Notes under the pieces: model-generated
What the model was told of the DNA's origin: nothing
The model's input: only the letters and a program-made list of their open reading frames with translations
Database searches by the model: none
Translations under genes and position numbers: made by a program
Shown here: positions 30,333 to 40,737 of the stretch, one piece after another
Position numbering within the stretch: the stretch's first letter is position 1
Layout: the number at the start of each line of letters is the position of its first letter
Source: an uncultured Mycoplasma sp.
GTDB lineage: Bacteria; Bacillota_I; Bacilli_A; RF39; UBA660
Direction of reading: 5' to 3'
Assembly: GCA_946554525.1 (NCBI GenBank)
Contig: CAMNSE010000006.1
Coordinates: 7,435-71,434, forward strand
Length of the DNA: 64,000 nt

Positions 30333-32555
30333 ATGAATTACATCAAAGGAAAGATTCGAAATACAATATATCATAATGAAGAAAATGGCTATGTAGTAGC
30401 TATTTTTCGCGTTAAAGAAACCAATGATGTGGATCTAGAAGATTATGTCGGGAAAACTATTACGATAACCGGTAATTTTATGGATGTTAATACGGAAGAA
30501 AACTTTATTTTATATGGTAGTCTTCTAAAACACGAACGTTTTGGGTTACAATATAAAGTAGATAGTTATAAAAAAGAAGAATTGACAAGTGAAGATGCAG
30601 TTATTGAATTTTTATCTAGTTCTCTTGTAAAAGGATGTGGAGAGAAAACCGCAAAGAAAATAGTAGAAATCCTTGGTATAGACGCTATAGCAAAGATTAA
30701 AGAAGACATCCGTGTGTTAGATACTATTCCTAATCTATCAGAATCAAAAAGAAAAACTATTTATGACTCTTTAATAGCTACCACTCTTGCGGATGATTGC
30801 CTTTTAAAATTAACTGAGCTTGGTTTTTCTATTCATGACGCAACAAATATATATAATAAATATAAAGAAACTACTAAATATATTATTGATGGAAATTTAT
30901 ATCTTTTAAGTGAAATTTTAGATTTTAATAAAATAGATGTTATTTATAAAAAGAGTCATGATGAATATGATAATATAAGATTAAAAGCTTGTATGGTAGA
31001 GGCTATGAGGCGCATAAGTAATTCTTCTGGAGATACATATTATTATGCGGATGAAATTAAAGATGCTTTAAAAAGAGAATTTAACTTAATATTAGAAGAA
31101 ATGGCTTTTGATAGTATTATATATGAGTTAGAAGAAGAAAATTTAGTAATAGTTGAAAAAGAAATATATTATTTAACAGAGTACTATGAAGCTGAGGAAG
31201 ATATAGTAGATTGCTTATATAGTTTAAATAATAATAATGAATTAATTGGCTTTGATTTTGATCATGAAATAGATATATTAGAGAGTGAAATAGGAGTATC
31301 CTATAACGAAGACCAAAGATTTGCTATAAAAAAAGCTTTAGAAAATAAAATAACAATTATTTCTGGAGGCCCTGGGACAGGTAAAACAACAATAATTAAT
31401 GCAATAGTTAAATTATATAGCAAAATGCACAAATTAAATTATATGGAAGTATTATCGGAAATAGCACTACTTGCACCTACTGGAAGAGCAAGTAAAAAAA
31501 TGAGCATGTCAACAGGACTCCCAGCTAAGACTATTCATAGATTTTTAAAATGGAATAAAGATACAGATAGTTTTTCAATAAATGAATTTCATAAAACAAA
31601 TGAAAATTTAGTCATAGTAGATGAAATGAGTATGATAGATATTAATTTATTTGATGCTTTATTAAAAGGTATTAGAAATAAAGTACAGTTAATCTTAGTT
31701 GGCGATACCTTTCAACTTCCATCTGTAGGGCCAGGTCTAATCTTAAATGATTTGATTGAGAGTGATTTATTTACGTTCTGTCCTTTAGAAAAAATTTATC
31801 GTCAAAGCGAGAATTCTTATATCCCATATCTAGCGCTTGAAATAAAGAAAAAAGATTTATCTGATGATTTTCGAGTTAAAAAAGATGACTATAATTTTTT
31901 AGAAACTGATAGTGTTAATATTAAAGAAATGATTAGAAAAATATGTTTAATGAGCAAAGAAAAGGGATTAAATGAAAATGATATTCAAATACTTGCGCCA
32001 ATGTATAAAGGAGAAAATGGTATTGATAACTTAAACTTATTATTACAAGATTTATTTAATCCTTATTATGAAGATAAAAAAGAAATTCGAATAGGTGAGG
32101 TAATATACCGCGAAAATGATAAAGTATTACAGCTTCAAAATAATCCTGATTGTAATGTATTTAACGGTGATATTGGCTACATAAGAAAAATAACAAAAAA
32201 GCTAGGTAAAAATAAGGATACAATTATTATTGATTTTGATGGTAATAAAGTTGAATATTCTAAAGAAGACATGTATCAAGTAAAGCATGCCTATGCTATT
32301 ACTGTACATAAAAGTCAAGGTAGTGAATTTTCTCATGTTATTTTGCCGATATCTAGAGGGTATTATAAAATGCTTTATAATAAGCTAATTTATACAGCAG
32401 TATCTAGAGCAAAAAAAAGTTTGGTAATTATTGGCGAGTCTAAAAGCTTTATGATGGGAATTTATAATGATTACGCTAGTACTAGAAAAACCATGCTAAA
32501 AGAAAAGTTAATGAATAGATTTTTAAATGAGAGCCATAATAATACTGAGGTGTAA
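30333..32555 (+). CDS. recD2: ATP-dependent RecD-like DNA helicase (RecD2/YrrC)
   Basis: N-terminal HhH/OB region; Walker A GGPGTGKTT; DEMSMID; helicase C-terminal motifs. Confidence 0.9.
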   Translation: MNYIKGKIRNTIYHNEENGYVVAIFRVKETNDVDLEDYVGKTITITGNFMDVNTEENFILYGSLLKHERFGLQYKVDSYKKEELTSEDAVIEFLSSSLVKGCGEKTAKKIVEILGIDAIAKIKEDIRVLDTIPNLSESKRKTIYDSLIATTLADDCLLKLTELGFSIHDATNIYNKYKETTKYIIDGNLYLLSEILDFNKIDVIYKKSHDEYDNIRLKACMVEAMRRISNSSGDTYYYADEIKDALKREFNLILEEMAFDSIIYELEEENLVIVEKEIYYLTEYYEAEEDIVDCLYSLNNNNELIGFDFDHEIDILESEIGVSYNEDQRFAIKKALENKITIISGGPGTGKTTIINAIVKLYSKMHKLNYMEVLSEIALLAPTGRASKKMSMSTGLPAKTIHRFLKWNKDTDSFSINEFHKTNENLVIVDEMSMIDINLFDALLKGIRNKVQLILVGDTFQLPSVGPGLILNDLIESDLFTFCPLEKIYRQSENSYIPYLALEIKKKDLSDDFRVKKDDYNFLETDSVNIKEMIRKICLMSKEKGLNENDIQILAPMYKGENGIDNLNLLLQDLFNPYYEDKKEIRIGEVIYRENDKVLQLQNNPDCNVFNGDIGYIRKITKKLGKNKDTIIIDFDGNKVEYSKEDMYQVKHAYAITVHKSQGSEFSHVILPISRGYYKMLYNKLIYTAVSRAKKSLVIIGESKSFMMGIYNDYASTRKTMLKEKLMNRFLNESHNNTEV

Positions 32556-32560
32556 ATATA

Positions 32561-32716
32561 ATGAAAAAAATGATGGTTGGAAGTGTATTAGCTATGGCTG
32601 CTGGAGTTGGAATGTTGGCTTATGCATTAAATAATAAAAAAACCAAGCAAAAAGCTACAAAACTTATTAATAATGCAATGGATGTAGCAAATAAAAAGAT
32701 TGAAGATATGAAATAG
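32561..32716 (+). CDS. small membrane protein (51 aa)
   Basis: MKKMMVGSVLAMAAGVGMLAYALNNKK...; below the ORF-track length cutoff; strong terminator directly downstream. Confidence 0.4.
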   Translation: MKKMMVGSVLAMAAGVGMLAYALNNKKTKQKATKLINNAMDVANKKIEDMK

Positions 32717-32746
32717 GGCATAAGCTGCTCTATTTTTTTAATACCT

Positions 32747-32781
32747 AAAAACCCATAATTACTGGGTTTTTTCTGTTTTTT
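32747..32781 (+). terminator. intrinsic terminator
   Basis: aaaaccca-taattac-tgggtttt followed by a T-run. Confidence 0.75.
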
Positions 32782-32804
32782 ATACAACTAACTTAACTAA
32801 AAAC

Positions 32805-32832
32805 TTGACAAAATAGAAAAAATGTGTATAAT
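32805..32832 (+). promoter_or_regulatory. sigma-A-type promoter heading the SipW locus (-35 TTGACA, 16-nt spacer, -10 TATAAT)
   Basis: Consensus hexamers ~55 nt upstream of the 32889 start. Confidence 0.6.
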
Positions 32833-32888
32833 AGCATGGCAAAAGCAGACATTTTATAACAAATTTCTGCAAAGGAAGGGTTGATTAT

Positions 32889-34640
32889 ATGCGTAAGTAT
32901 ACTGGAAAACGTGAGCATAAAAAGAGTCACAAATTAAGAAACAGTATTATTTTGACAGCGCTTGCAGGGCTTTTCATTTTTGGAATGACTAAATGTTATT
33001 TTGATAAGCGTGCAAAAGAAGATAGAGAAAAAAGAATTGAAATTATGAGAGAGGAAGCTCTTAAAAAGTTTAGAGATAAGTTTAAAGATTTTGATGATTT
33101 AAATCCATCATTTACACCAGAGCCAAGTATGGGTCCAATCATGACTCCAAGTGCAGAACCTAGTGTAACTGGTATTCCAAGCCCAAGTCCAGCACCTAGT
33201 GCGACTTCGCATCCAAGTGCTACACCAGTTACAAGACCAACATCAAGCCCAACACTTATTGTCTCACCGAGTGCAGTGCCTAGTGCTTCACCAAGTGTAA
33301 CTGGTATTCCAAGCCCAAGTGCAGCACCTATTGCGACTCCGCATCCAAGTGCTACACCAAGCCCAGCACCAAGTGCCTCACCGAGTCCAGCGCCTAGTGC
33401 AAGCACATCACCAAGTCCAGCACCTAGTGCTTCACCGAGTCCAGCTCCACCAGTTGATATATCATTAATTAGTCCAAGCCCATCACCAAGTCCAGCACCT
33501 AGTGCAAAGCCAACTCCAGCGCCAACACCAAGACCACACTACCATAGTTTTGGAGAATGGTATTCAATTAATGATGAAGAAGAACAAAGAAAATGTTCTT
33601 GTGGAAAAGTTGAAAAAAGAGCGCATAAATATGAAGTTATTTCAACAAGTAAAGGAACCTCCAATAAAAATGGTACTCATAGAATTGTAATTACAAAAGA
33701 GTGTGTTAATTGTAAACACAAGATTAACGAGGCAAAAACAATAGATTGTACTTATGGTTCATTACAACATGATGAAGACCATGAATATAAATTATGTACC
33801 GAATGTGGATATGAATTAAATTTAGGAGCACATAAATTTAAAGTTATTTCAACATCAAATGCTAAATCAAATAAAAATGGTACTCACAGTGTTACAGTTA
33901 CTAAAGAATGTACTAGCTGTAAATATAAATTTAGTGAAACCAAAACAATAGATTGTACTTATGGATCTTTATTATTTGATAAAGACCATGAATACAAGTT
34001 ATGTACTGAATGTGGATATGAATTAGATTTAGGTGGACATACTTTAAAAACTGAAGTTTCTTACGAAGCTGCTGATGGGAAGCACCATACTGTAATTACA
34101 GATATTCATTGTACTACTTGTGATTACAAGGATAGCAATAGAGAAAGAGAGTCGTGTACTACAAATGGTGGTCTAATTTGGCACAATAATGATGAGAACG
34201 AATACAAAGAATGCGAACATTGTCATCAAGAAGTAATAGTAGGAACACACTCTTATGGAAAACCAGAAAATAATGAAGCCGGATTCAAAGTAGAGTCATG
34301 TACTCATACTGGTTGTGGTTATGAAAAAGCTCATCATCATCAAGCTGAACTAACTCCTGGTGACTATACCTCAATTGATGATAGTTATCATTATGAAATA
34401 ACTAGTTGTGAAACTTGTGGAGATGTACTTTTAAGAGAAAAAACTGAACATAGTTATTATACAGATTTTGATGACCCTACTATGGGAAAAATTGAAATAT
34501 GTAGTGATTGTGGTCACAGAAAAGAAACTTACTATCCACAGCCTGACCCAGATCCAGAAGAAGATATTATTGATTTAAGTTTAGGTACTTTTGCAAGTAC
34601 AAACAATGAAGTTTACACTCTTGTTCGTAAATTATATTAA
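32889..34640 (+). CDS. membrane-anchored protein with a Pro/Ser/Ala-rich linker and tandem Cys-rich modules
   Basis: TM helix (ILTALAGLFIFGM); PSPAPSASPS low-complexity repeats; ~69-aa modules with CTECGYEL and KEC..CK Cys pairs repeated at least 4 times. Confidence 0.6.
   Translation: MRKYTGKREHKKSHKLRNSIILTALAGLFIFGMTKCYFDKRAKEDREKRIEIMREEALKKFRDKFKDFDDLNPSFTPEPSMGPIMTPSAEPSVTGIPSPSPAPSATSHPSATPVTRPTSSPTLIVSPSAVPSASPSVTGIPSPSAAPIATPHPSATPSPAPSASPSPAPSASTSPSPAPSASPSPAPPVDISLISPSPSPSPAPSAKPTPAPTPRPHYHSFGEWYSINDEEEQRKCSCGKVEKRAHKYEVISTSKGTSNKNGTHRIVITKECVNCKHKINEAKTIDCTYGSLQHDEDHEYKLCTECGYELNLGAHKFKVISTSNAKSNKNGTHSVTVTKECTSCKYKFSETKTIDCTYGSLLFDKDHEYKLCTECGYELDLGGHTLKTEVSYEAADGKHHTVITDIHCTTCDYKDSNRERESCTTNGGLIWHNNDENEYKECEHCHQEVIVGTHSYGKPENNEAGFKVESCTHTGCGYEKAHHHQAELTPGDYTSIDDSYHYEITSCETCGDVLLREKTEHSYYTDFDDPTMGKIEICSDCGHRKETYYPQPDPDPEEDIIDLSLGTFASTNNEVYTLVRKLY
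33162..33425 (+). repeat. in-frame tandem repeat, 2 x 132 bp (SVTGIPSPS.AP.ATSHPSATP units)
   Basis: Near-identical DNA units begin at 33162 and 33294. Confidence 0.7.
33621..34034 (+). repeat. in-frame tandem repeat, 2 x 207 bp encoding the Cys-rich module
   Basis: The unit starting gcgcataaatatgaagttatttcaaca recurs 207 bp downstream. Confidence 0.7.
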
Positions 34641-34648
34641 AAAAGAAA

Positions 34649-35392
34649 GTGGTGAAAGAAATGAAAAAGGGAAATGTTTGGTATAAAAGCATTAGCAATT
34701 GGATAATCATTATCGCTTGTGTCCTTTTAATACCTATATTAGTAATAAATCTATATATCATGATTCAGTCTAAAACGAATCCTAATGATATTCCTGGAGT
34801 TTTTGGCTATAAACCTTTTATCGTATTATCTGGTTCTATGGAATCTAAAATCCATAAGGGCGATTTAATATTTGTAAAAGAAATAGATCCAAGTACTCTT
34901 AAAGTTAATGATGTTATCGCTTATCGTGATGGCGAAGACACTGTTACAACCCACAGAATTATTGATATTATTGAAAATAATGATGTAACGTATTTTATCA
35001 CTAAAGGAGATAATAATGCGACACAAGATTTAAACTTAGTTGCTTATGAAGATGTTGAAGGAATCTATACAGGTAGATTTCCCGGAATAGGTTCAATGAT
35101 GAATTCTTTATCTAAGCCAACAACGATCATAGTTTTAGTATTAGTTATTACAGTTGCTTTTGGTATTGGATTTACAATATCTAATAAGAAAATCAAAGAT
35201 CAAGAAAGATTAGAATTCTTAGAATATAAAAGAATGAAAGAACAACAAGAAAAAGAACAAGCTGCAAAGAAGACCAAGAATGTGAAGTCTATAAAAGCTA
35301 GTGAAAAAAAGGGAGAAGATAAAAAAACTTCAACCAAAAAAACTACTACTAAAAAAAATAGTAGTGAAGCTAAGTCTAAAAAAAAGGCTTAA
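34649..35392 (+). CDS. sipW: SipW-type (ER/archaeal-type, Ser-His) signal peptidase I with a Lys-rich C-terminal tail
   Basis: N-terminal TM helix; LSGSMESKI (Ser box); TTHRIID (His box); KGDNNATQD; second TM helix then a ~70-aa K/S/T-rich tail. Confidence 0.8.
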   Translation: MVKEMKKGNVWYKSISNWIIIIACVLLIPILVINLYIMIQSKTNPNDIPGVFGYKPFIVLSGSMESKIHKGDLIFVKEIDPSTLKVNDVIAYRDGEDTVTTHRIIDIIENNDVTYFITKGDNNATQDLNLVAYEDVEGIYTGRFPGIGSMMNSLSKPTTIIVLVLVITVAFGIGFTISNKKIKDQERLEFLEYKRMKEQQEKEQAAKKTKNVKSIKASEKKGEDKKTSTKKTTTKKNSSEAKSKKKA

Positions 35393-35438
35393 ATTAATTT
35401 CGATAAACTCTTTCTATTTCAGGGAGTTTATATAGATT

Positions 35439-35472
35439 AGGAAGTTATCTTCCTATGCATAGTACTATGCAT
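35439..35472 (+). promoter_or_regulatory. dyad-symmetry elements upstream of the TasA-like gene (possible operator)
   Basis: aggaag-ttat-cttcct is immediately followed by the perfect 18-bp palindrome atgcatagtactatgcat, ~30 nt before the RBS. Confidence 0.4.
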
Positions 35473-35501
35473 TTGAAATTATTTTAGGGGGAGGTGAAAT
35501 A

Positions 35502-36293
35502 ATGAATAATAAGAAAGGAATCCTATTAGTAGTATTATTATTAGCTGTTGTTGGAACTGCATTCTCTGTAAGTGGAACATATGCTAAATATACAACTACT
35601 GATGAAACAGGAGCTGATTCTGCAAGAGTTGCTCAATGGTCATTTGGACTTACTGAAACTCCATTTACTATTGATAGTCTATTTGAAGATTCTTATACTA
35701 ATGTACCTATGCCAAACGGACATCAAATCATTAAATCAATGGATGGTGAAGACGTTGTAGCGCCAGGAGCTAATGGTAAATATACATTTAGTTTAACAGG
35801 AACTGTTGAAACAAATTATACATTAAACTTTAGTGTTGAATTAGAAAATAGTGTGGTATTAACTAAAAATGGCCCATTTAATATTGTTGATGGTTATACT
35901 GCTAATGAATATAGCCCATTAGAATTTACAGTTTATAGTGGAACTGTTGCTCCAACTATGCCAGTATGGGCAAAATTAGATAGTACTAATCTTACAGCTG
36001 CTTTAAATAAATTAGTTGAAAAAGATGGTGAAGATATCGTATATGGACCTACAACAGCTGCAAATTCTAATTTAGGAACTTATACAATCGAATGGAGATG
36101 GGATTTTGAGCAAAATCCTAATGGAGCTCCAGGTATCAGCAATGATATTTATGATCAATTAGATACATTATTAGGTAATAAGATTTACGAGGCTATTAAA
36201 GCTGGAAAAACTGAAGGTGACGAAGGTTATCCATATGTAAGTCTAAATGTTGCTATTACTGCTACTCAATCTAATAAAAAAGTAACTAATTAA
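35502..36293 (+). CDS. TasA/camelysin-like secreted protein with a SipW-cognate-class signal peptide
   Basis: Signal peptide then GTYAKYTTTDETGADS, matching the GTxAxFxDxE signature of SipW substrates; 263 aa, close to TasA size; followed by a strong terminator. Confidence 0.6.
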   Translation: MNNKKGILLVVLLLAVVGTAFSVSGTYAKYTTTDETGADSARVAQWSFGLTETPFTIDSLFEDSYTNVPMPNGHQIIKSMDGEDVVAPGANGKYTFSLTGTVETNYTLNFSVELENSVVLTKNGPFNIVDGYTANEYSPLEFTVYSGTVAPTMPVWAKLDSTNLTAALNKLVEKDGEDIVYGPTTAANSNLGTYTIEWRWDFEQNPNGAPGISNDIYDQLDTLLGNKIYEAIKAGKTEGDEGYPYVSLNVAITATQSNKKVTN

Positions 36294-36322
36294 TAAAATG
36301 GAAGCTTTAGCTTCCAAATAAG

Positions 36323-36347
36323 CCTATGAATCTCATAGGTTTATTTG
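36323..36347 (+). terminator. intrinsic terminator after the TasA-like gene
   Basis: cctatga-atc-tcatagg followed by TTTATTTG; a second hairpin ggaagc-ttta-gcttcc lies just upstream. Confidence 0.7.
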
Positions 36348-36377
36348 AAAGTTAAATATTAGAAAGGAGTTAAAGAC

Positions 36378-39248
36378 ATGAAAAAGAATGAAGTAATAAT
36401 TAAAGAAAACGAAGAAAAAGATTCAAGAACAAGAAAAATACTTCTTTATATTATCATTATAATTATTATCATTCTTTCTATAATTACTAGTTGTAGTTGC
36501 ACATCTAGATTTTTTGGTCGCATTGGTAACAGATTTATTAATGATGGCGACCATGCAATTGACGGATCTAATAATAAAGAAGTAATAACTAATCAAAATT
36601 TAAAATTTGATTATGACCGATTTGAAATTTCATTAAGTGATGAATTTTCTAAAATCAGATTTAACTATAGTAAAATTACTCCTGAAAAATTTACATGTTC
36701 AACTAGTGATGCTAGTATAGCAACATGCTTTGTAAAAGATAATCATGTCATAATTATTCCTAAAAAGCCTGGTACTGTAACTGTAACAGTTAGAACTGAA
36801 GTAAATGATAAAATATATGAAGCAACTACAAGTATAACCATTACTGATTCAAAAAAAGGAATAACCTTATCAAGCACTAAAGGAACTATTAATTTGGCTT
36901 ATAGTAATAAAAAAGAAACATATTATCATTTAGTAGGAATTATTGGAAATATAAATATTACATCCAGTGATCCTTCAATAGCAAAAGCAGAAGTCATTGG
37001 AAATAAAATAGTTATTACTGGATTAAAGCCAGGAAACGCTAAAATCACTATATCCGTAAATGATAATGGAAAAGTTTATGAAGCTATATATACAGTAAAT
37101 ATTGTTAATAATCCTAAAGCTCCCGTTCCTACACCTGTTAAAAAAGATCATAATAGTAATCTTGCAAGTTTATCAGTAAGTAAAGGAGAGTTAAAGCCTA
37201 ATTTTAATAAATATAATAAGAATTATGAAGTGTTTGTAGGAGAAGATATTTCTAGAATTTCGTTAAAAGCAACAGCAGAAAGCAATAAGTCAAAAATCAC
37301 TTATATTTATAATTTTAAAGAATATAAGGATTTTGTGGATATGCCAATTACAAATGGCAAAAATATTGTAACAATTAAAGTGGTTGCAGAAGATAGTACA
37401 ACATCTGTTTATGTAGTTACAATCATCAAAAAAACTCCTATTACACCGGAAAAAAGTAGTGATGCATCTCTAAAGGACATAACTATTACTGTAGGAGAGT
37501 TAAAGCCATCATTTAATCCCGAAACAGAGAATTATAAAGTAACAGTACCATCAGACACTAATACAGTTACTATTGAAGGAGTGCCAAGTAGTAATAAAGC
37601 AATAGTTAAATATATTTATAATGACAAAGAATATACAGAATTTAAAGATATACCTATTAAAACAGGTGAAAATGTCGTTTCTATTATAGTTACTGCTGAA
37701 GATAATACAGAAAAAATATACACTGTAACTATTGATAAAGAAAAGAACGCTAATAATAATTTAGCAAATTTAACTGTTAGTGCAGGTGCTCTAGATCCAA
37801 TATTTAATAAAGATACTTTAAAATATGATGTCGTATTACCATATGATGTAAAGAAAATCACAGTTACAGGTACACAAGAAGATTATAGATCAACTATAGA
37901 ATATTATTATAACAATGAAAAATACAAACAATTTAGTGAAATTAATTTAACTAAAGATGATAATATTGTCTTTGTTGTGGTAACGGCTGAAGATGGCAGT
38001 ACTAAAACTTATGTTGTAGATATTCATCGCTATTATCTAGATGGCAAAAAAGAATACATGATGAACTTTGATAGTTCAACTAAAGAAACTGATATAATAT
38101 TAAATACTAATATATTTAAAGATAGCATTAATGTTGAACAAACTGATGATAAAAATCTAAAAATATGCAGCAAGAACAACCTTAATAGTTGTATTAACAT
38201 TTCAACGACTAGCGATTCTTTAAAGAGTTTAGAGTATACTGGAGAACTCAATTCTCCAACATCACTATCAATAAAAGCTACAGCGGATAGTCCAGGAAGT
38301 GCTTACATTCATGTTGTAGGATCTGTAAATGGTGTTAAAATAAATGATTTTTATATTAAACTGGATGTATTACAAAGCTATATAATATCTCTCAATGCTC
38401 AAGGTGGATTATTTAACGAGTTTTCTAAAGATATATATACATTTAAATTAGGTGCTGGAGAAACATTTGACTTAAATACAGCAGGTATTCCATATTTAAT
38501 TGATGAATCAAATCCATGCTTATATTATGAATTTATGGGATATAGTAAATCTAAAGAAAATAAAGAGTTATTTAAAGATTTAAATAATATGATTATATCT
38601 TATGATGAATTAGATAGTGATTTAACACTTTATGCTGTATATAATATGGATAAAAAAATAGAGCTTACAAATGAACACAAAACCATTTGGGTCTCAGACG
38701 TTCCAATATTTATTGATAAAGCATATTTTGAAGAATTTAAAGGCGAAAAAATAATAGCTCCTGGTTCATATGGTGACTATACAATGCATTTAATAAATGA
38801 GACAAAAAATAATATAACACTTACAGGAATGACCTTAAAAGAAGAAACTATATGTGTTAATGAAAATGGCATTAATGGTTGTTTAAATATGGGTTATGTT
38901 GTTAAAGATGGTTCAGTAAATCAAAACTATCATTTCCATAATAATCATGATTATAAAATATTAAATGAATATGCTACTACAAAGAATTGGGCTGGTAATT
39001 ATAATGAAAATAAATTTGATTTTGATATCTCTACAAAAAATGATACTACAATTAAAGCAGGAGAAACACTAGATTTAGTATTAATTTGGAAATGGGTTGA
39101 AATAAACGATTACAGTGACAAAGTAGATACGCTAATAGGAAATGTTGCTGCAAGTAAAATAGAAGATGCAACAGTTAATGATTTGTATACGTTACATATT
39201 GGAATTCATTATGATACGATAATAGAGAATTGTCCAAGTAAAATTTAA
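36378..39248 (+). CDS. large membrane-anchored surface protein with 2 Big_2 Ig-like and 3 cadherin-like beta-sandwich domains
   Basis: N-terminal TM helix (ILLYIIIIIIIILSII); two ~80-aa Big_2-like units; three ~95-aa repeats of the pattern L..L.VS.G.L.P.F...YNV; ~400-aa C-terminal region without recognised domains. Confidence 0.6.
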   Translation: MKKNEVIIKENEEKDSRTRKILLYIIIIIIIILSIITSCSCTSRFFGRIGNRFINDGDHAIDGSNNKEVITNQNLKFDYDRFEISLSDEFSKIRFNYSKITPEKFTCSTSDASIATCFVKDNHVIIIPKKPGTVTVTVRTEVNDKIYEATTSITITDSKKGITLSSTKGTINLAYSNKKETYYHLVGIIGNINITSSDPSIAKAEVIGNKIVITGLKPGNAKITISVNDNGKVYEAIYTVNIVNNPKAPVPTPVKKDHNSNLASLSVSKGELKPNFNKYNKNYEVFVGEDISRISLKATAESNKSKITYIYNFKEYKDFVDMPITNGKNIVTIKVVAEDSTTSVYVVTIIKKTPITPEKSSDASLKDITITVGELKPSFNPETENYKVTVPSDTNTVTIEGVPSSNKAIVKYIYNDKEYTEFKDIPIKTGENVVSIIVTAEDNTEKIYTVTIDKEKNANNNLANLTVSAGALDPIFNKDTLKYDVVLPYDVKKITVTGTQEDYRSTIEYYYNNEKYKQFSEINLTKDDNIVFVVVTAEDGSTKTYVVDIHRYYLDGKKEYMMNFDSSTKETDIILNTNIFKDSINVEQTDDKNLKICSKNNLNSCINISTTSDSLKSLEYTGELNSPTSLSIKATADSPGSAYIHVVGSVNGVKINDFYIKLDVLQSYIISLNAQGGLFNEFSKDIYTFKLGAGETFDLNTAGIPYLIDESNPCLYYEFMGYSKSKENKELFKDLNNMIISYDELDSDLTLYAVYNMDKKIELTNEHKTIWVSDVPIFIDKAYFEEFKGEKIIAPGSYGDYTMHLINETKNNITLTGMTLKEETICVNENGINGCLNMGYVVKDGSVNQNYHFHNNHDYKILNEYATTKNWAGNYNENKFDFDISTKNDTTIKAGETLDLVLIWKWVEINDYSDKVDTLIGNVAASKIEDATVNDLYTLHIGIHYDTIIENCPSKI
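37140..38030 (+). repeat. three in-frame ~285-bp cadherin-like domain repeats (protein-level similarity)
   Basis: Repeats beginning SNLASLSVSKGELKPNF, DASLKDITITVGELKPSF and NNNLANLTVSAGALDPIF. Confidence 0.55.
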
Positions 39249-39259
39249 GGGGTTGTAAA

Positions 39260-40099
39260 ATGAAAGAATTAAAAAAAGGATTGCAAATATTACTTATACT
39301 CATATTAGCGTTAATTATTTTCATTAATGTTTATAATTTTATTTCTATTAAAGTATTAAAAAATAGATATACATCTATTATGGGCTATACTATGCTAGAA
39401 GTAATATCTGGTTCTATGGAACCAACCATTCATATTAATGATTTTATTATTGTTAATACAAATTCTAAAGAATTTAGCGAAAACGATATTATTACATATT
39501 ATGATGAAGAAAATAATTTTGTTACGCATCGTATTATTAAGATCGAAGATGATAGTTTTATTACTAAGGGAGATCATAATGATTCTATAGATAAGCCAAT
39601 TAGTAAAGAACAAGTATTAGGTAAATACGTTTTAAAATTTACCGGAGCTGGTAAAATTTTGGGAGCTTTTAAGAATCCTATCACAATGATTTTAATCTTT
39701 ATAGTAGGACTCCTAATGTGTGTATTTATTAGTACAGATAAAAATGGCAATCCAATAATAGATGAAGATGAAAAAGAATTTGCAGAATTCTTAAAAGACA
39801 AAGATAAAAAGGGAAAAGAAAGCAATGCTCCTAAGAAAGAAAAAATTAAAAAGGTTGAGAATAAAAAGGAAATAAAGAAAGAGATAAGTAAGAAAAGTTC
39901 TAAACCTAGTCAAAATAGTTCGACTAGAAAAACAGAACCAAAACAAATCTCTAAAACAAGTTCGGCAAAAACTGTAGCTAGTAAAAAGAATAGTGCAAAT
40001 AAACAAACTAAAGTAGAACAAAATGTAAAAGCTGGTTCTAAAACTACTACTAGCAAAAACAATGTAAAGAAAAATACCAAAAATACAACTAAAAAGTAG
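39260..40099 (+). CDS. sipW: second SipW-type signal peptidase I with a long K/S/T-rich C-terminal tail
   Basis: ISGSMEPTI (Ser box), VTHRIIK (His box), KGDHNDS; TM helix then a ~120-aa Lys-rich tail. Confidence 0.8.
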   Translation: MKELKKGLQILLILILALIIFINVYNFISIKVLKNRYTSIMGYTMLEVISGSMEPTIHINDFIIVNTNSKEFSENDIITYYDEENNFVTHRIIKIEDDSFITKGDHNDSIDKPISKEQVLGKYVLKFTGAGKILGAFKNPITMILIFIVGLLMCVFISTDKNGNPIIDEDEKEFAEFLKDKDKKGKESNAPKKEKIKKVENKKEIKKEISKKSSKPSQNSSTRKTEPKQISKTSSAKTVASKKNSANKQTKVEQNVKAGSKTTTSKNNVKKNTKNTTKK

Positions 40100-40732
40100 G
40101 TGAATATAATGAAAGGGTTACTACATAGTAAAAAATTTAGAACGAATTTATATAGATGGTTATTCATGTATGTAGGAGCAATTGGGCTTTTTACAGCAGT
40201 AGTAACCTATTCAAAGTACGTATCTAGTGTTCTAAGTGGTACTGATGATGCTAGACCTGCTAAATTTAATGTTACAATATTAAATGAAATAGCAGATTTA
40301 GAATGTGCTAAAAACGCAGAAAATACCGAGTTAAACGAATGTTATGTTGGAAAGTTTTCTCCTCTAACACCAATGATGTATGCATTTTCTGTAGATACGA
40401 AAGAATTAGAAGTAAATACAGATTTTGCTGTAACATTTACAGTTCATAAAGATTTTAAAGTTGAAAAGCTAGAAGATATTACAAATCCACAAGATATAAA
40501 AGAAATTAATTTAACTGATGAAGATTTGCATGGTAATCAAAGTATAAGTTTATTTACACCAAAAGAAGAGATAGCTGCTTCTTCTGGAACAAAAAGAATT
40601 TATCGTATAACAGTTAAATATAATGGTTCGTTAATTAATGAAGATACAAACGAAACTATCATTTTTACTGATCCATTTGATGTAGTAAAAGTTGGTTATT
40701 CAGCGTATCAGCAAACTGATTATAGGGGGTAA
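40100..40732 (+). CDS. secreted protein with a SipW-cognate-like signal peptide (210 aa)
   Basis: Hydrophobic region then TYSKYVSSVLSGTDDA, which parallels the TYAKYTTTDE of the 35502 protein; start abuts the sipW2 stop. Confidence 0.5.
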   Translation: MNIMKGLLHSKKFRTNLYRWLFMYVGAIGLFTAVVTYSKYVSSVLSGTDDARPAKFNVTILNEIADLECAKNAENTELNECYVGKFSPLTPMMYAFSVDTKELEVNTDFAVTFTVHKDFKVEKLEDITNPQDIKEINLTDEDLHGNQSISLFTPKEEIAASSGTKRIYRITVKYNGSLINEDTNETIIFTDPFDVVKVGYSAYQQTDYRG

Positions 40733-40737
40733 TAATT

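Follow-up and report, generated by a model that had tools for sequence, protein, structure and literature searches.

The locus analysed here raises the question of what the first gene of a SipW locus encodes in an uncultured Mycoplasma sp. (GTDB lineage Bacteria; Bacillota_I; Bacilli_A; RF39; UBA660), and how its product might serve the secreted proteins encoded beside it. The locus lies in a stretch of 64,000 nucleotides (nt), here called the window (assembly GCA_946554525.1, contig CAMNSE010000006.1, positions 7,435 to 71,434 of the forward strand), and the gene in question encodes a protein of 583 amino acids (aa) that we call X583. An earlier note, made from the DNA letters of this stretch, had described the product as a membrane-anchored protein built from Pro/Ser/Ala-rich linkers and tandem Cys-rich modules, located at the position that TapA occupies in Bacillus. 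We find that X583 stands for a protein family and domain not described before, which occupies a conserved operon position within a known kind of locus. In Firmicute biofilms the main protein scaffold consists of SipW-dependent fibres (TasA, BsaA), and, to our knowledge, little is established outside Bacillus subtilis about how these fibres start or attach to the cell. The X family is a concrete, testable candidate for fibre start or anchoring in a clade of uncultured gut Bacilli.

The Cys/His module of X583

The region from aa 217 to 550 contains 23 Cys and 25 His (6.8% His), with ten C-x(1-4)-C knuckles and three single Cys, which extends to ten the 'at least four' Cys/His modules that had first been counted. 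Mini-modules in this region follow the order N-A-B, A-B, A-B and then the distinct units D, E and F. The 69-aa module of the earlier note corresponds to one A+B pair, and the CTECGYEL motif occurs twice in X583. The recurring unit is a supermodule of ~103 aa composed of three mini-modules of ~30-37 aa, with the consensus HxHxFGxWxxxxDxxExRxCxCGxxETRxH..Y..NxxGTHxxxxTxxCxxCGH(x9)C(x6)YDxxxExxxCxxCG(x6)H. An alignment of 50 homologous module sequences (alignment A1) is the basis of this consensus, of the AlphaFold2 (AF2) model and of the ligand-column counts given below.

Whole X583 matched nothing above cut-off in Pfam or NCBIfam, with only DUF7035 appearing at an expectation (E) value of 0.084. 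The two-copy fragment reached 24.9 bits with the Pfam family DZR (cut-off 27.3), plus scattered weaker zinc-ribbon families, and all 50 A1 modules likewise gave scattered weak zinc-ribbon matches in Pfam, with Zn_ribbon_8 found in 5 of the 50 at E<=0.01. A sequence search of the PDB with the C-terminal region of X583 returned no meaningful match, and the module profile gave a marginal C2H2 finger from CTCF (E 0.0078). As regards structure, a single-sequence AF2 prediction of the whole Cys/His region was unusable at a predicted local distance difference test score (pLDDT) of 39.5. Prediction of supermodule 1 (aa 217-322) with A1 gave a pLDDT of 94.2 and a predicted template modelling score (pTM) of 0.71, with eight beta-strands and no helix. 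Each C-x(1-2)-C sits between two strands in the AF2 secondary-structure string, which is consistent with the knuckles being hairpin turns. When the three-module unit was compared with the PDB by Foldseek no match was found (best E 0.06, template modelling (TM) score 0.29). Thus the AlphaFold check proposed at the outset yielded a confident all-beta model that has no Foldseek counterpart in the PDB, and the statement that the module is not a named domain holds, given that the Pfam, NCBIfam and PDB searches returned no well-characterised family above cut-off and no PDB entry by sequence or fold. Judged from the predicted structure, the Cys/His module appears to be a new all-beta domain type without a Pfam or PDB representative.

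Each supermodule has 12 ligand-type columns that are conserved at 72-100% among the A1 sequences. Cys is invariant at C20, C56, C59 and C87 and His at H30 (50/50 each), and the remaining columns are H3 (49 H, 1 C of 50), C22 (39 C, 7 D), H48 (46 H), H61 (36 H, 8 Y), C71 (45 C, 2 H, plus 1 His shifted by one), C90 (47 C) and H99 (42 H of 43 non-gap). The module histidines are conserved to the same degree as the cysteines, and the swaps at these columns comprise seven of Cys to Asp, two of Cys to His (plus the one shifted by one) and one of His to Cys. Because an interchange of Cys, His and Asp at fixed columns fits ligands and not disulfide partners, we read these columns as probable metal sites. 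The earlier note had left the choice between a zinc-ribbon and a disulfide-rich repeat; the zinc-ribbon-like alternative is the best reading in light of the sub-threshold matches, the predicted placing of each C-x-x-C between strands and the swaps, and a disulfide-rich module is rejected since the 23 external Cys are odd in number and conserved columns exchange Cys, His and Asp. From the ligand pattern, each mini-module probably holds one zinc ion, and 12 ligands would make three four-ligand sites per supermodule and about ten in X583.

Comparison with known zinc ribbons (DZR PF12773, Zn_ribbon_8 PF09723) reveals both likeness and difference. Like these families, X583 has C-x-x-C motifs that the model places between strands, and four conserved ligand-type residues per ~30-aa unit. 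However, most X583 mini-modules have one C-x-x-C plus single His or Cys ligands (C2H2 or C3H) and not two C-x-x-C. Furthermore, the X583 modules are extracellular, would be arrayed as a tandem rod and score under every family cut-off. Cys/His repeats of clostridial surface and cellulosomal proteins are distantly related, by HMMER, to the N and A mini-modules (HxFGxW...CxCG...H). These proteins carry a signal peptide plus a dockerin, an SLH domain or a C-terminal anchor and, unlike X583, have no SipW link, no D-E-F units and no tail motif. DUF7836 partially matches three distant relatives (two just above cut-off, one below) and never X583 or its orthologues. Many Firmicute surface proteins, cohesin- and dockerin-bearing ones included, contain units distantly related to this module. 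Defining the module as a domain would improve the annotation of many 'hypothetical' surface proteins, and would establish metal-stabilised knuckle repeats as extracellular stalk builders in anaerobes.

Predicted tether, family and conserved place ahead of SipW

The proposed membrane anchoring, at the N-terminus with the rest of the protein extracellular, is supported by eight K/R among the first 18 residues, a single hydrophobic segment and then a spacer. Specifically, the body of X583 is placed outside the cell because this arrangement fits the positive-inside rule, and an extracellular location is also supported by the occurrence of distant module relatives in surface-type proteins with cohesin, dockerin, SLH, BspA-LRR and Flg_new domains. 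The Pro/Ser/Ala-rich linker is likewise evident, with 45 P, 36 S and 20 A among the 144 residues of the spacer (aa 73-216), which would measure ~45 nm when fully extended. X583 fails the lipobox test [LVI][ASTVI][GAS]C in that it has M-T-K-C, with Cys at the lipobox position and an atypical K at -1. Of the 87 family representatives in which a hydrophobic segment is present at the N-terminus, 11 have a strict lipobox, 13 a relaxed one and 47 no Cys, and a basic stretch precedes the segment in every case. What the family N-termini have in common is tethering at the external side of the membrane. In many orthologues a lipid-modified Cys probably serves at the anchor, and for X583 an uncleaved signal anchor is more likely than a lipidated Cys; we infer both its topology and its lipidation state. 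Two other assignments were rejected, namely an anti-sigma factor or sensor, as the cytoplasmic part is just 18 residues, and a sortase substrate or PEP-CTERM-like sorting, as the tail has neither an LPXTG motif nor a C-terminal hydrophobic helix. Several homologues (P0003, P0008, P0010, L015, L027) have His/Asp-rich runs directly after the anchor (DGKDHDHDHD, DDEHNHNHDHEHDHDD), which are possibly extra metal-binding segments; X583 itself has no such run.

Relatives of X583 were recovered by exhaustive search. A word-index protein search over 5.8 billion clusters returned only X583 itself with the C-terminal region as query, and no relatives with the 50-sequence module alignment. Exhaustive HMMER over 1.84 billion representatives gave 99 at E<=1e-3, of which 34 were at <=1e-10 and 5 at <=1e-30, with most of the 99 having several matched stretches. 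This disproves an orphan gene. For fast-evolving repeat proteins, an 'only itself' outcome from a word index should not be taken as orphan status. The closer relatives have a common layout in which a basic N-terminus leads into a hydrophobic segment and a low-complexity spacer; the repeated modules come next, and the protein closes with a tail that is short and basic.

The claimed place of X583 at the head of the SipW locus is confirmed by a SipW gene start 8-20 nt past the X583 stop codon with no terminator between the two. The start of X583 has a Shine-Dalgarno-like AGGAAGGG 9 nt on its 5' side, and a promoter candidate further upstream is the sole perfect (12/12) sigma-70 match in the 10.8 kb scanned (32400-43200). 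A terminator-like hairpin with its T-run (32747-32781) separates the X583 operon from recD2. X583 is co-transcribed with sipW and the genes for SipW-type secreted proteins, and probably translationally coupled to them. An identical X583 protein is called on nine public contigs, all with the same gene order. An Rfam scan of the X583 locus gave no match.

We next consider whether this position is kept in other genomes. A GTDB locus search with the X583 protein as query returned no match. GTDB (one genome per species) was also scanned with a degenerate 84-nt pattern encoding H-x4-W-x4-D-x2-E-x3-C-x-C-G-x6-H, which located 25 stretches, nearly all from uncultured 'Bacilli'/'Tenericutes' metagenome-assembled genomes (mouse, rabbit and other guts). 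Thirteen of these loci include the 3' end of the homologue and downstream DNA, and each of the 13 has a SipW1 orthologue (55-70% identical) at -14 to +46 nt downstream of X, followed, as far as the contigs extend, by orthologues of the neighbours p263, p956, SipW2 and p210 (Table 1). Three further homologues located by exact sequence (P0004, P0006 and P0014; E 3e-44 to 1e-19) keep the order X, SipW1, p263, p956, SipW2, p210, p587, with differing flanking genes; all seven genes are present in L032, the L034 contig ends in p587 and that of L036 ends inside p956. Overall, in 16/16 evaluable loci that were found through X itself, a SipW orthologue directly follows X. Identity is only 25-45% for the X orthologues, whose lengths span 406 to 1055 aa with module number differing widely across species, and 55-75% for the adjoining SipW. 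Thus the stalk evolves fast, changing its module number between species, while SipW is well conserved. Two of the loci, L015 (CAYUGU010000130.1, 'uncultured Bacteroides sp.', 35% GC) and L023 (CAZSXH010000011.1, 'uncultured Muribaculaceae', 29.5% GC), carry the Bacilli-type X-SipW operon under other taxon names and are probably mis-binned. A third stretch, L014 (52.5% GC), contains no homologue and matches the DNA pattern by chance.

The reverse test searched metagenomes with a SipW1 alignment, independently of X, and labelled open reading frames (ORFs) with hidden Markov models of the X module, SipW and p263. Where SipW was at least 58% identical to the query, X was upstream in 3 of 4 evaluable loci (L037, L038, L040); the fourth, L039, has no X and carries sortase-like and other genes in its place. 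Where SipW was 38-48% identical, with a p263-like gene downstream and at least 1.5 kb of upstream sequence, X was present in 0 of 8 evaluable loci. Absence of the gene from otherwise syntenic loci, which the earlier note had named as a finding that would count against it, is thus seen in part, in L039 and in all eight distant-clade loci. Within a wider SipW/p263 system X is an addition specific to a clade, and because X is missing from these loci the secreted system can operate without it. No relevant literature came up in a search for an X-SipW system in Erysipelotrichia or Turicibacter.

The distal end of the protein is conserved in a manner that the stalk is not. The D-E-F cassette is kept in about 15 of 19 distinct orthologues while the central module number varies, and nearly all orthologues end with a tail motif (YTLVRK, HVLTRK, KVLVLK, KTLVLS, YVLVRK, YILERK). 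Gibbs sampling scored this motif at 186 bits versus 154.8 +/- 5.1 for residue-shuffled tails, and because 0 of 60 shuffles reached 186 the tail conservation exceeds an effect of composition. A pedestal that presents one specific binding element would be expected to combine, in this way, a stalk of variable length with a conserved far end.

A possible role in the SipW-processed polymer

The candidate partner of such an element is p263, a secreted protein encoded after SipW1. Members of the p263 family have an invariant G-T-Y-A-K-Y that ends the signal sequence, followed by (T)D-x-A-R-V-A-K-W, and GTYAKY resembles the G-T-W-A-A-F of the TasA cleavage region (TasA sequence checked against PDB 8AUR). 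No match to p263 was found in Pfam, NCBIfam or the PDB, Peptidase_M73/TasA included, and its 51 relatives are all unnamed. Alignment of a 40-sequence p263 profile with TasA by hhalign did not extend beyond the final two strands, which include 'ATQ' (E 0.0077, probability 5%; W.W.F...D..DTLLGN...I.ITATQ versus MEIQF...QNKYQGN SIKLQFSFEATQ). From the signal motif and this alignment it is plausible that p263 forms a TasA-like fibre. The large protein p956 is similar to p263 at aa 773-831 (29% over 59 aa, E 1e-5), a segment that includes the VAPG..G.Y motif, and could join the p263 polymer as a large adhesive subunit, since this p263-like stretch would permit incorporation in the same polymer.

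The reading that we favour, as a possibility somewhat short of probable, is that X583 anchors or nucleates the SipW-processed polymer as a wall-spanning, zinc-stiffened surface stalk. X583 would be rooted in the membrane through its N-terminal hydrophobic segment with the remainder outside, and the 144-aa Pro/Ser/Ala spacer would be long enough to cross the cell wall. Past the spacer, ten zinc-holding Cys/His mini-modules would build a stiff all-beta rod whose far end would present the D-E-F cassette, the acidic spacer and the YTLVRK peptide. The distal cassette or tail would then dock onto the polymer subunit (p263, with the adhesin p956), possibly as an added beta-strand, and X583 would be a functional analogue, not a homologue, of TapA. 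A more specific and more doubtful version holds that the stalk is an undescribed poly-zinc rod acting as a length-adjustable, membrane-rooted pedestal, with its C-terminal peptide strand-inserting into the first subunit of a new SipW-dependent fibre that is unrelated or only distantly related to TasA; this way of anchoring and nucleating would have evolved independently of TapA.

The comparison with TapA (YqxM) of B. subtilis deserves closer attention. Like X583, TapA is encoded by the first gene of its operon, which is followed by sipW and a gene for a SipW-processed secreted protein; moreover, both are extracellular and both are lineage-specific accessories, in that B. cereus has sipW-tasA without tapA (PMC4292775). 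TapA residues 44-57 are a functional terminal peptide that starts TasA filaments by strand donation (PMC10151520), and TasA fibres assemble by donor-strand exchange (PMC9674648). The conserved short terminal peptide is C-terminal in X583, in contrast to the N-terminal donor strand of TapA. A second difference is that SipW processes TapA, whose fold is of the V-set immunoglobulin (Ig) type, whereas X583 combines a Pro-rich spacer and Cys/His modules predicted to be hairpins with an anchor that is either uncleaved or lipidated. Among NCBIfam models TapA/YqxM does not match X583 at E<=0.1, and the solved TapA chains (PDB 6HQC, 6QAY) are absent from PDB searches at E<=10 with the C-terminal region and the module profile. 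No Ig (V-set) core is apparent either, as the AF2 module consists of beta-hairpins with Cys knuckles at the pLDDT given above and Foldseek returned no Ig-fold match. The SipW-type signal GT[WY]A.[FY] is absent from all family N-termini, with only a loose resemblance in X583 itself (MTKCYF). Thus of four testable defining features of TapA three are lacking (sequence, signal, Ig fold) and one is present, that is a gene directly upstream of sipW and of a SipW-dependent subunit gene, and TapA homology is rejected. Of the original TapA comparison, the position ahead of sipW survives in all 16 loci found through X and the likeness of the proteins themselves does not.

Several observations weigh against a stalk that anchors or nucleates the polymer. 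The lipobox of X583 is atypical (MTKC), and L039 and the eight evaluable distant SipW/p263 loci do without X. TapA serves as a SipW substrate and has its active element at the N-terminus, neither of which is true of X583. In addition, p263 lacks a Pfam, NCBIfam or PDB match and its alignment with TasA is limited to the last two strands. Finally, the physical link between X583 and p263 is one that we infer, as are zinc binding, fibre formation by p263 and the docking step.

The strongest competing explanation, which we nevertheless judge unlikely, is that X583 is an autonomous adhesin or spacer that is co-expressed with the SipW-dependent proteins without binding them, with the rod projecting a binding surface or setting a distance. 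Use of related modules as spacers in many unrelated extracellular multidomain proteins (cohesin, dockerin, SLH, LRR_5) would be expected of such a protein, as would the free variation of module number between species and the existence of the SipW/p263 system without X in other clades. However, an independent adhesin does not readily account for the location of X immediately upstream of sipW in 16/16 loci despite differing flanking genes, and the conserved distal cassette and C-terminal motif suggest one specific partner common to all species.

It is improbable that X583 is itself a SipW substrate that is cut near TKC/YF and released as a soluble matrix or fibre-decorating component. The gene adjoins sipW, GMTKCYFDK is loosely like the G-T-x-A-x-[FY] ends of its neighbours (GTYAKY, VTYSKY, STNSRY), and the small residues at -3 and -1 (T, C) permit cleavage. 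Yet this resemblance is not kept in the family, where orthologues have lipobox-like or plain anchors and none has GTYAKY, unlike the invariant motif of the p263 family; a wall-spanning Pro-rich spacer right after the segment also better suits a tethered protein.

A surface zinc (metal) buffer or scavenger, capturing metal for the cell or its secreted proteins in the manner of the pneumococcal histidine-triad (Pht) proteins, is similarly hard to credit: about ten putative sites, the His content of the module region and the His/Asp-rich runs of several orthologues speak for it, but X583 has no such run, the conserved ligands lie within a confidently predicted rigid hairpin scaffold typical of structural and not exchangeable sites, and the conserved operon has no metal transporter gene. 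The Pht proteins are surface-tethered and have repeated zinc-binding motifs, as proposed for X583. Their motifs (HxxHxH) are nonetheless unrelated and lack Cys knuckles, and the genes with which the Pht proteins are associated are those of zinc uptake, not SipW.

Repeats, neighbouring genes and other features of the locus

The earlier note had reported exact in-frame tandem repeats of 2 x 132 bp and 2 x 207 bp. Both are present, and both are in frame because each period is a multiple of three (207 = 69 codons, 132 = 44 codons), but neither is exact. The 207-nt copies (33619-33825 versus 33826-34032) are 78.7% identical in DNA and 71% in protein as two 69-aa copies, and Tandem Repeats Finder (TRF) reports an array at 33619-34048 of period 207 with 2.1 copies, 78% matches and a score of 524. 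At the 132-nt spacing the matching stretch is only 94 nt at 85% (33147-33240 versus 33279-33372), with 68% DNA and 64% protein identity for this period over its full length; TRF also reports short-period arrays (24, 36 and 66 nt) within 33146-33449. The longest exact runs are 23 nt for period 207 and 27 nt for period 132. This indicates that the X583 repeats are old, diverged duplications rather than exact copies. Nor did the suggestion of copy-number variation find support between strains, as three variants of the 90% cluster on 11 contigs are all 583 aa. In one of these variants 7 of 8 substitutions fall in the linker, which is also where most substitutions occur overall. The spacer DNA (33105-33536) has a GC content of 51.6% versus 27.7% for the window, a GC island that is purely a matter of codon demand and that could be mistaken for foreign DNA.

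Table 1. Features of X583 and its operon, with positions counted from the first letter of the window.
Feature	Position	Strand	Remark
Terminator-like hairpin (32747-32771) plus T-run	32747..32781	+	terminates 51-aa ORF upstream of X583
Sigma-70-type promoter candidate, TTGACA-16 nt-TATAAT	32805..32832	+	promoter-consensus scan
X583 coding sequence	32889..34640	+	583 aa, ATG start; name X583 used in this analysis
Basic cytoplasmic N-terminus (aa 1-18, 8 K/R) plus hydrophobic anchor (aa 19-37, ending MTKC)	32889..32999	+	
Juxtamembrane segment, highly charged, aa 38-72	33000..33104	+	
Pro/Ser/Ala-rich spacer, aa 73-216, degenerate 24/36/66/132-nt repeats	33105..33536	+	
Supermodule 1 (mini-modules N, A, B), aa 217-314	33537..33830	+	unit recurring in homologues
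207-bp in-frame copies, A+B mini-module pair each	33619..34032	+	TRF, pairwise repeat search, own count
Third A+B pair, diverged, aa 384-453	34038..34247	+	
Terminal cassette, mini-modules D, E, F, aa 454-550	34248..34538	+	
Acidic spacer plus C-terminal tail, aa 551-583, ending YTLVRKLY	34539..34637	+	
Conserved motif YTLVRK	34614..34631	+	family consensus [YK][TV]L[VT][RL]K
SipW1, archaeal-type signal peptidase I	34661..35392	+	alternative GTG start 34649
p263, secreted, invariant GTYAKY signal motif, candidate fibre subunit	35502..36293	+	
p956, large secreted protein, three Cadherin-like domains, p263-like C-terminal segment	36378..39248	+	
SipW2, second signal-peptidase paralogue, 279 aa	39260..40099	+	
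p210, distant p263 paralogue, TYSKY signal motif	40100..40732	+	N-terminus VTYSKY...DDAR.A.F
p587, last gene of conserved seven-gene operon	40738..42501	+	signal-like end STNSRY

Both signal peptidases pass the TIGR02228 cut-off of 51.85, with SipW1 at 97.2 bits and SipW2 at 79.6 bits, and the Bacillus SipW equivalog model stays under its own cut-off (110.5 versus 190). In addition to its Cadherin-like domains, p956 has a Big_2-like stretch and a signal-like end CTSRF. The interval 39260-42501 forms a second cassette after the first, made up of SipW2, p210 and p587, and each of the two peptidases may have substrates of its own. The 84-nt gap 3' of p263 contains two hairpins (36299-36346), the second being CCTATGA-ATC-TCATAGG followed by TTTATTT. 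This second hairpin may be a partial terminator that gives more transcript for the first three genes; a partial terminator has been reported after the major subunit gene in sipW-bsaA of C. perfringens (PMC7395162).

The operons sipW-bsaABCRSD of C. perfringens and sipW-tasA-calY (+CapP) of B. cereus are likewise secreted-polymer operons with accessory secreted proteins. In these operons sipW comes first and there is no membrane-tethered Cys/His protein. In contrast, the X583 operon has two SipW paralogues and a 956-aa cadherin-like protein. A phage or defence element was rejected on the PHROGs result and on the housekeeping genes that flank the operon; four of five operon proteins, p263 included, had no match in PHROGs, and p587 had one marginal match (E 6.6e-4) to a phrog of unknown function.

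Between recD2 and X583 lies a 51-aa ORF (32561-32716, MKKMMVGSVLAMAAGVGMLAYALNNKK...) with one hydrophobic segment and its own terminator; every public contig of the source species has a gene call for it. On the other side of the operon, a CotE homologue (43012-43542, E 1.3e-46) adjoins a 450-aa protein (44170-45522) with a weak transglutaminase-core match (E 3.3e-4), a pair not seen near the operon in the homologue loci examined. The source organism is therefore taken to be a spore former.

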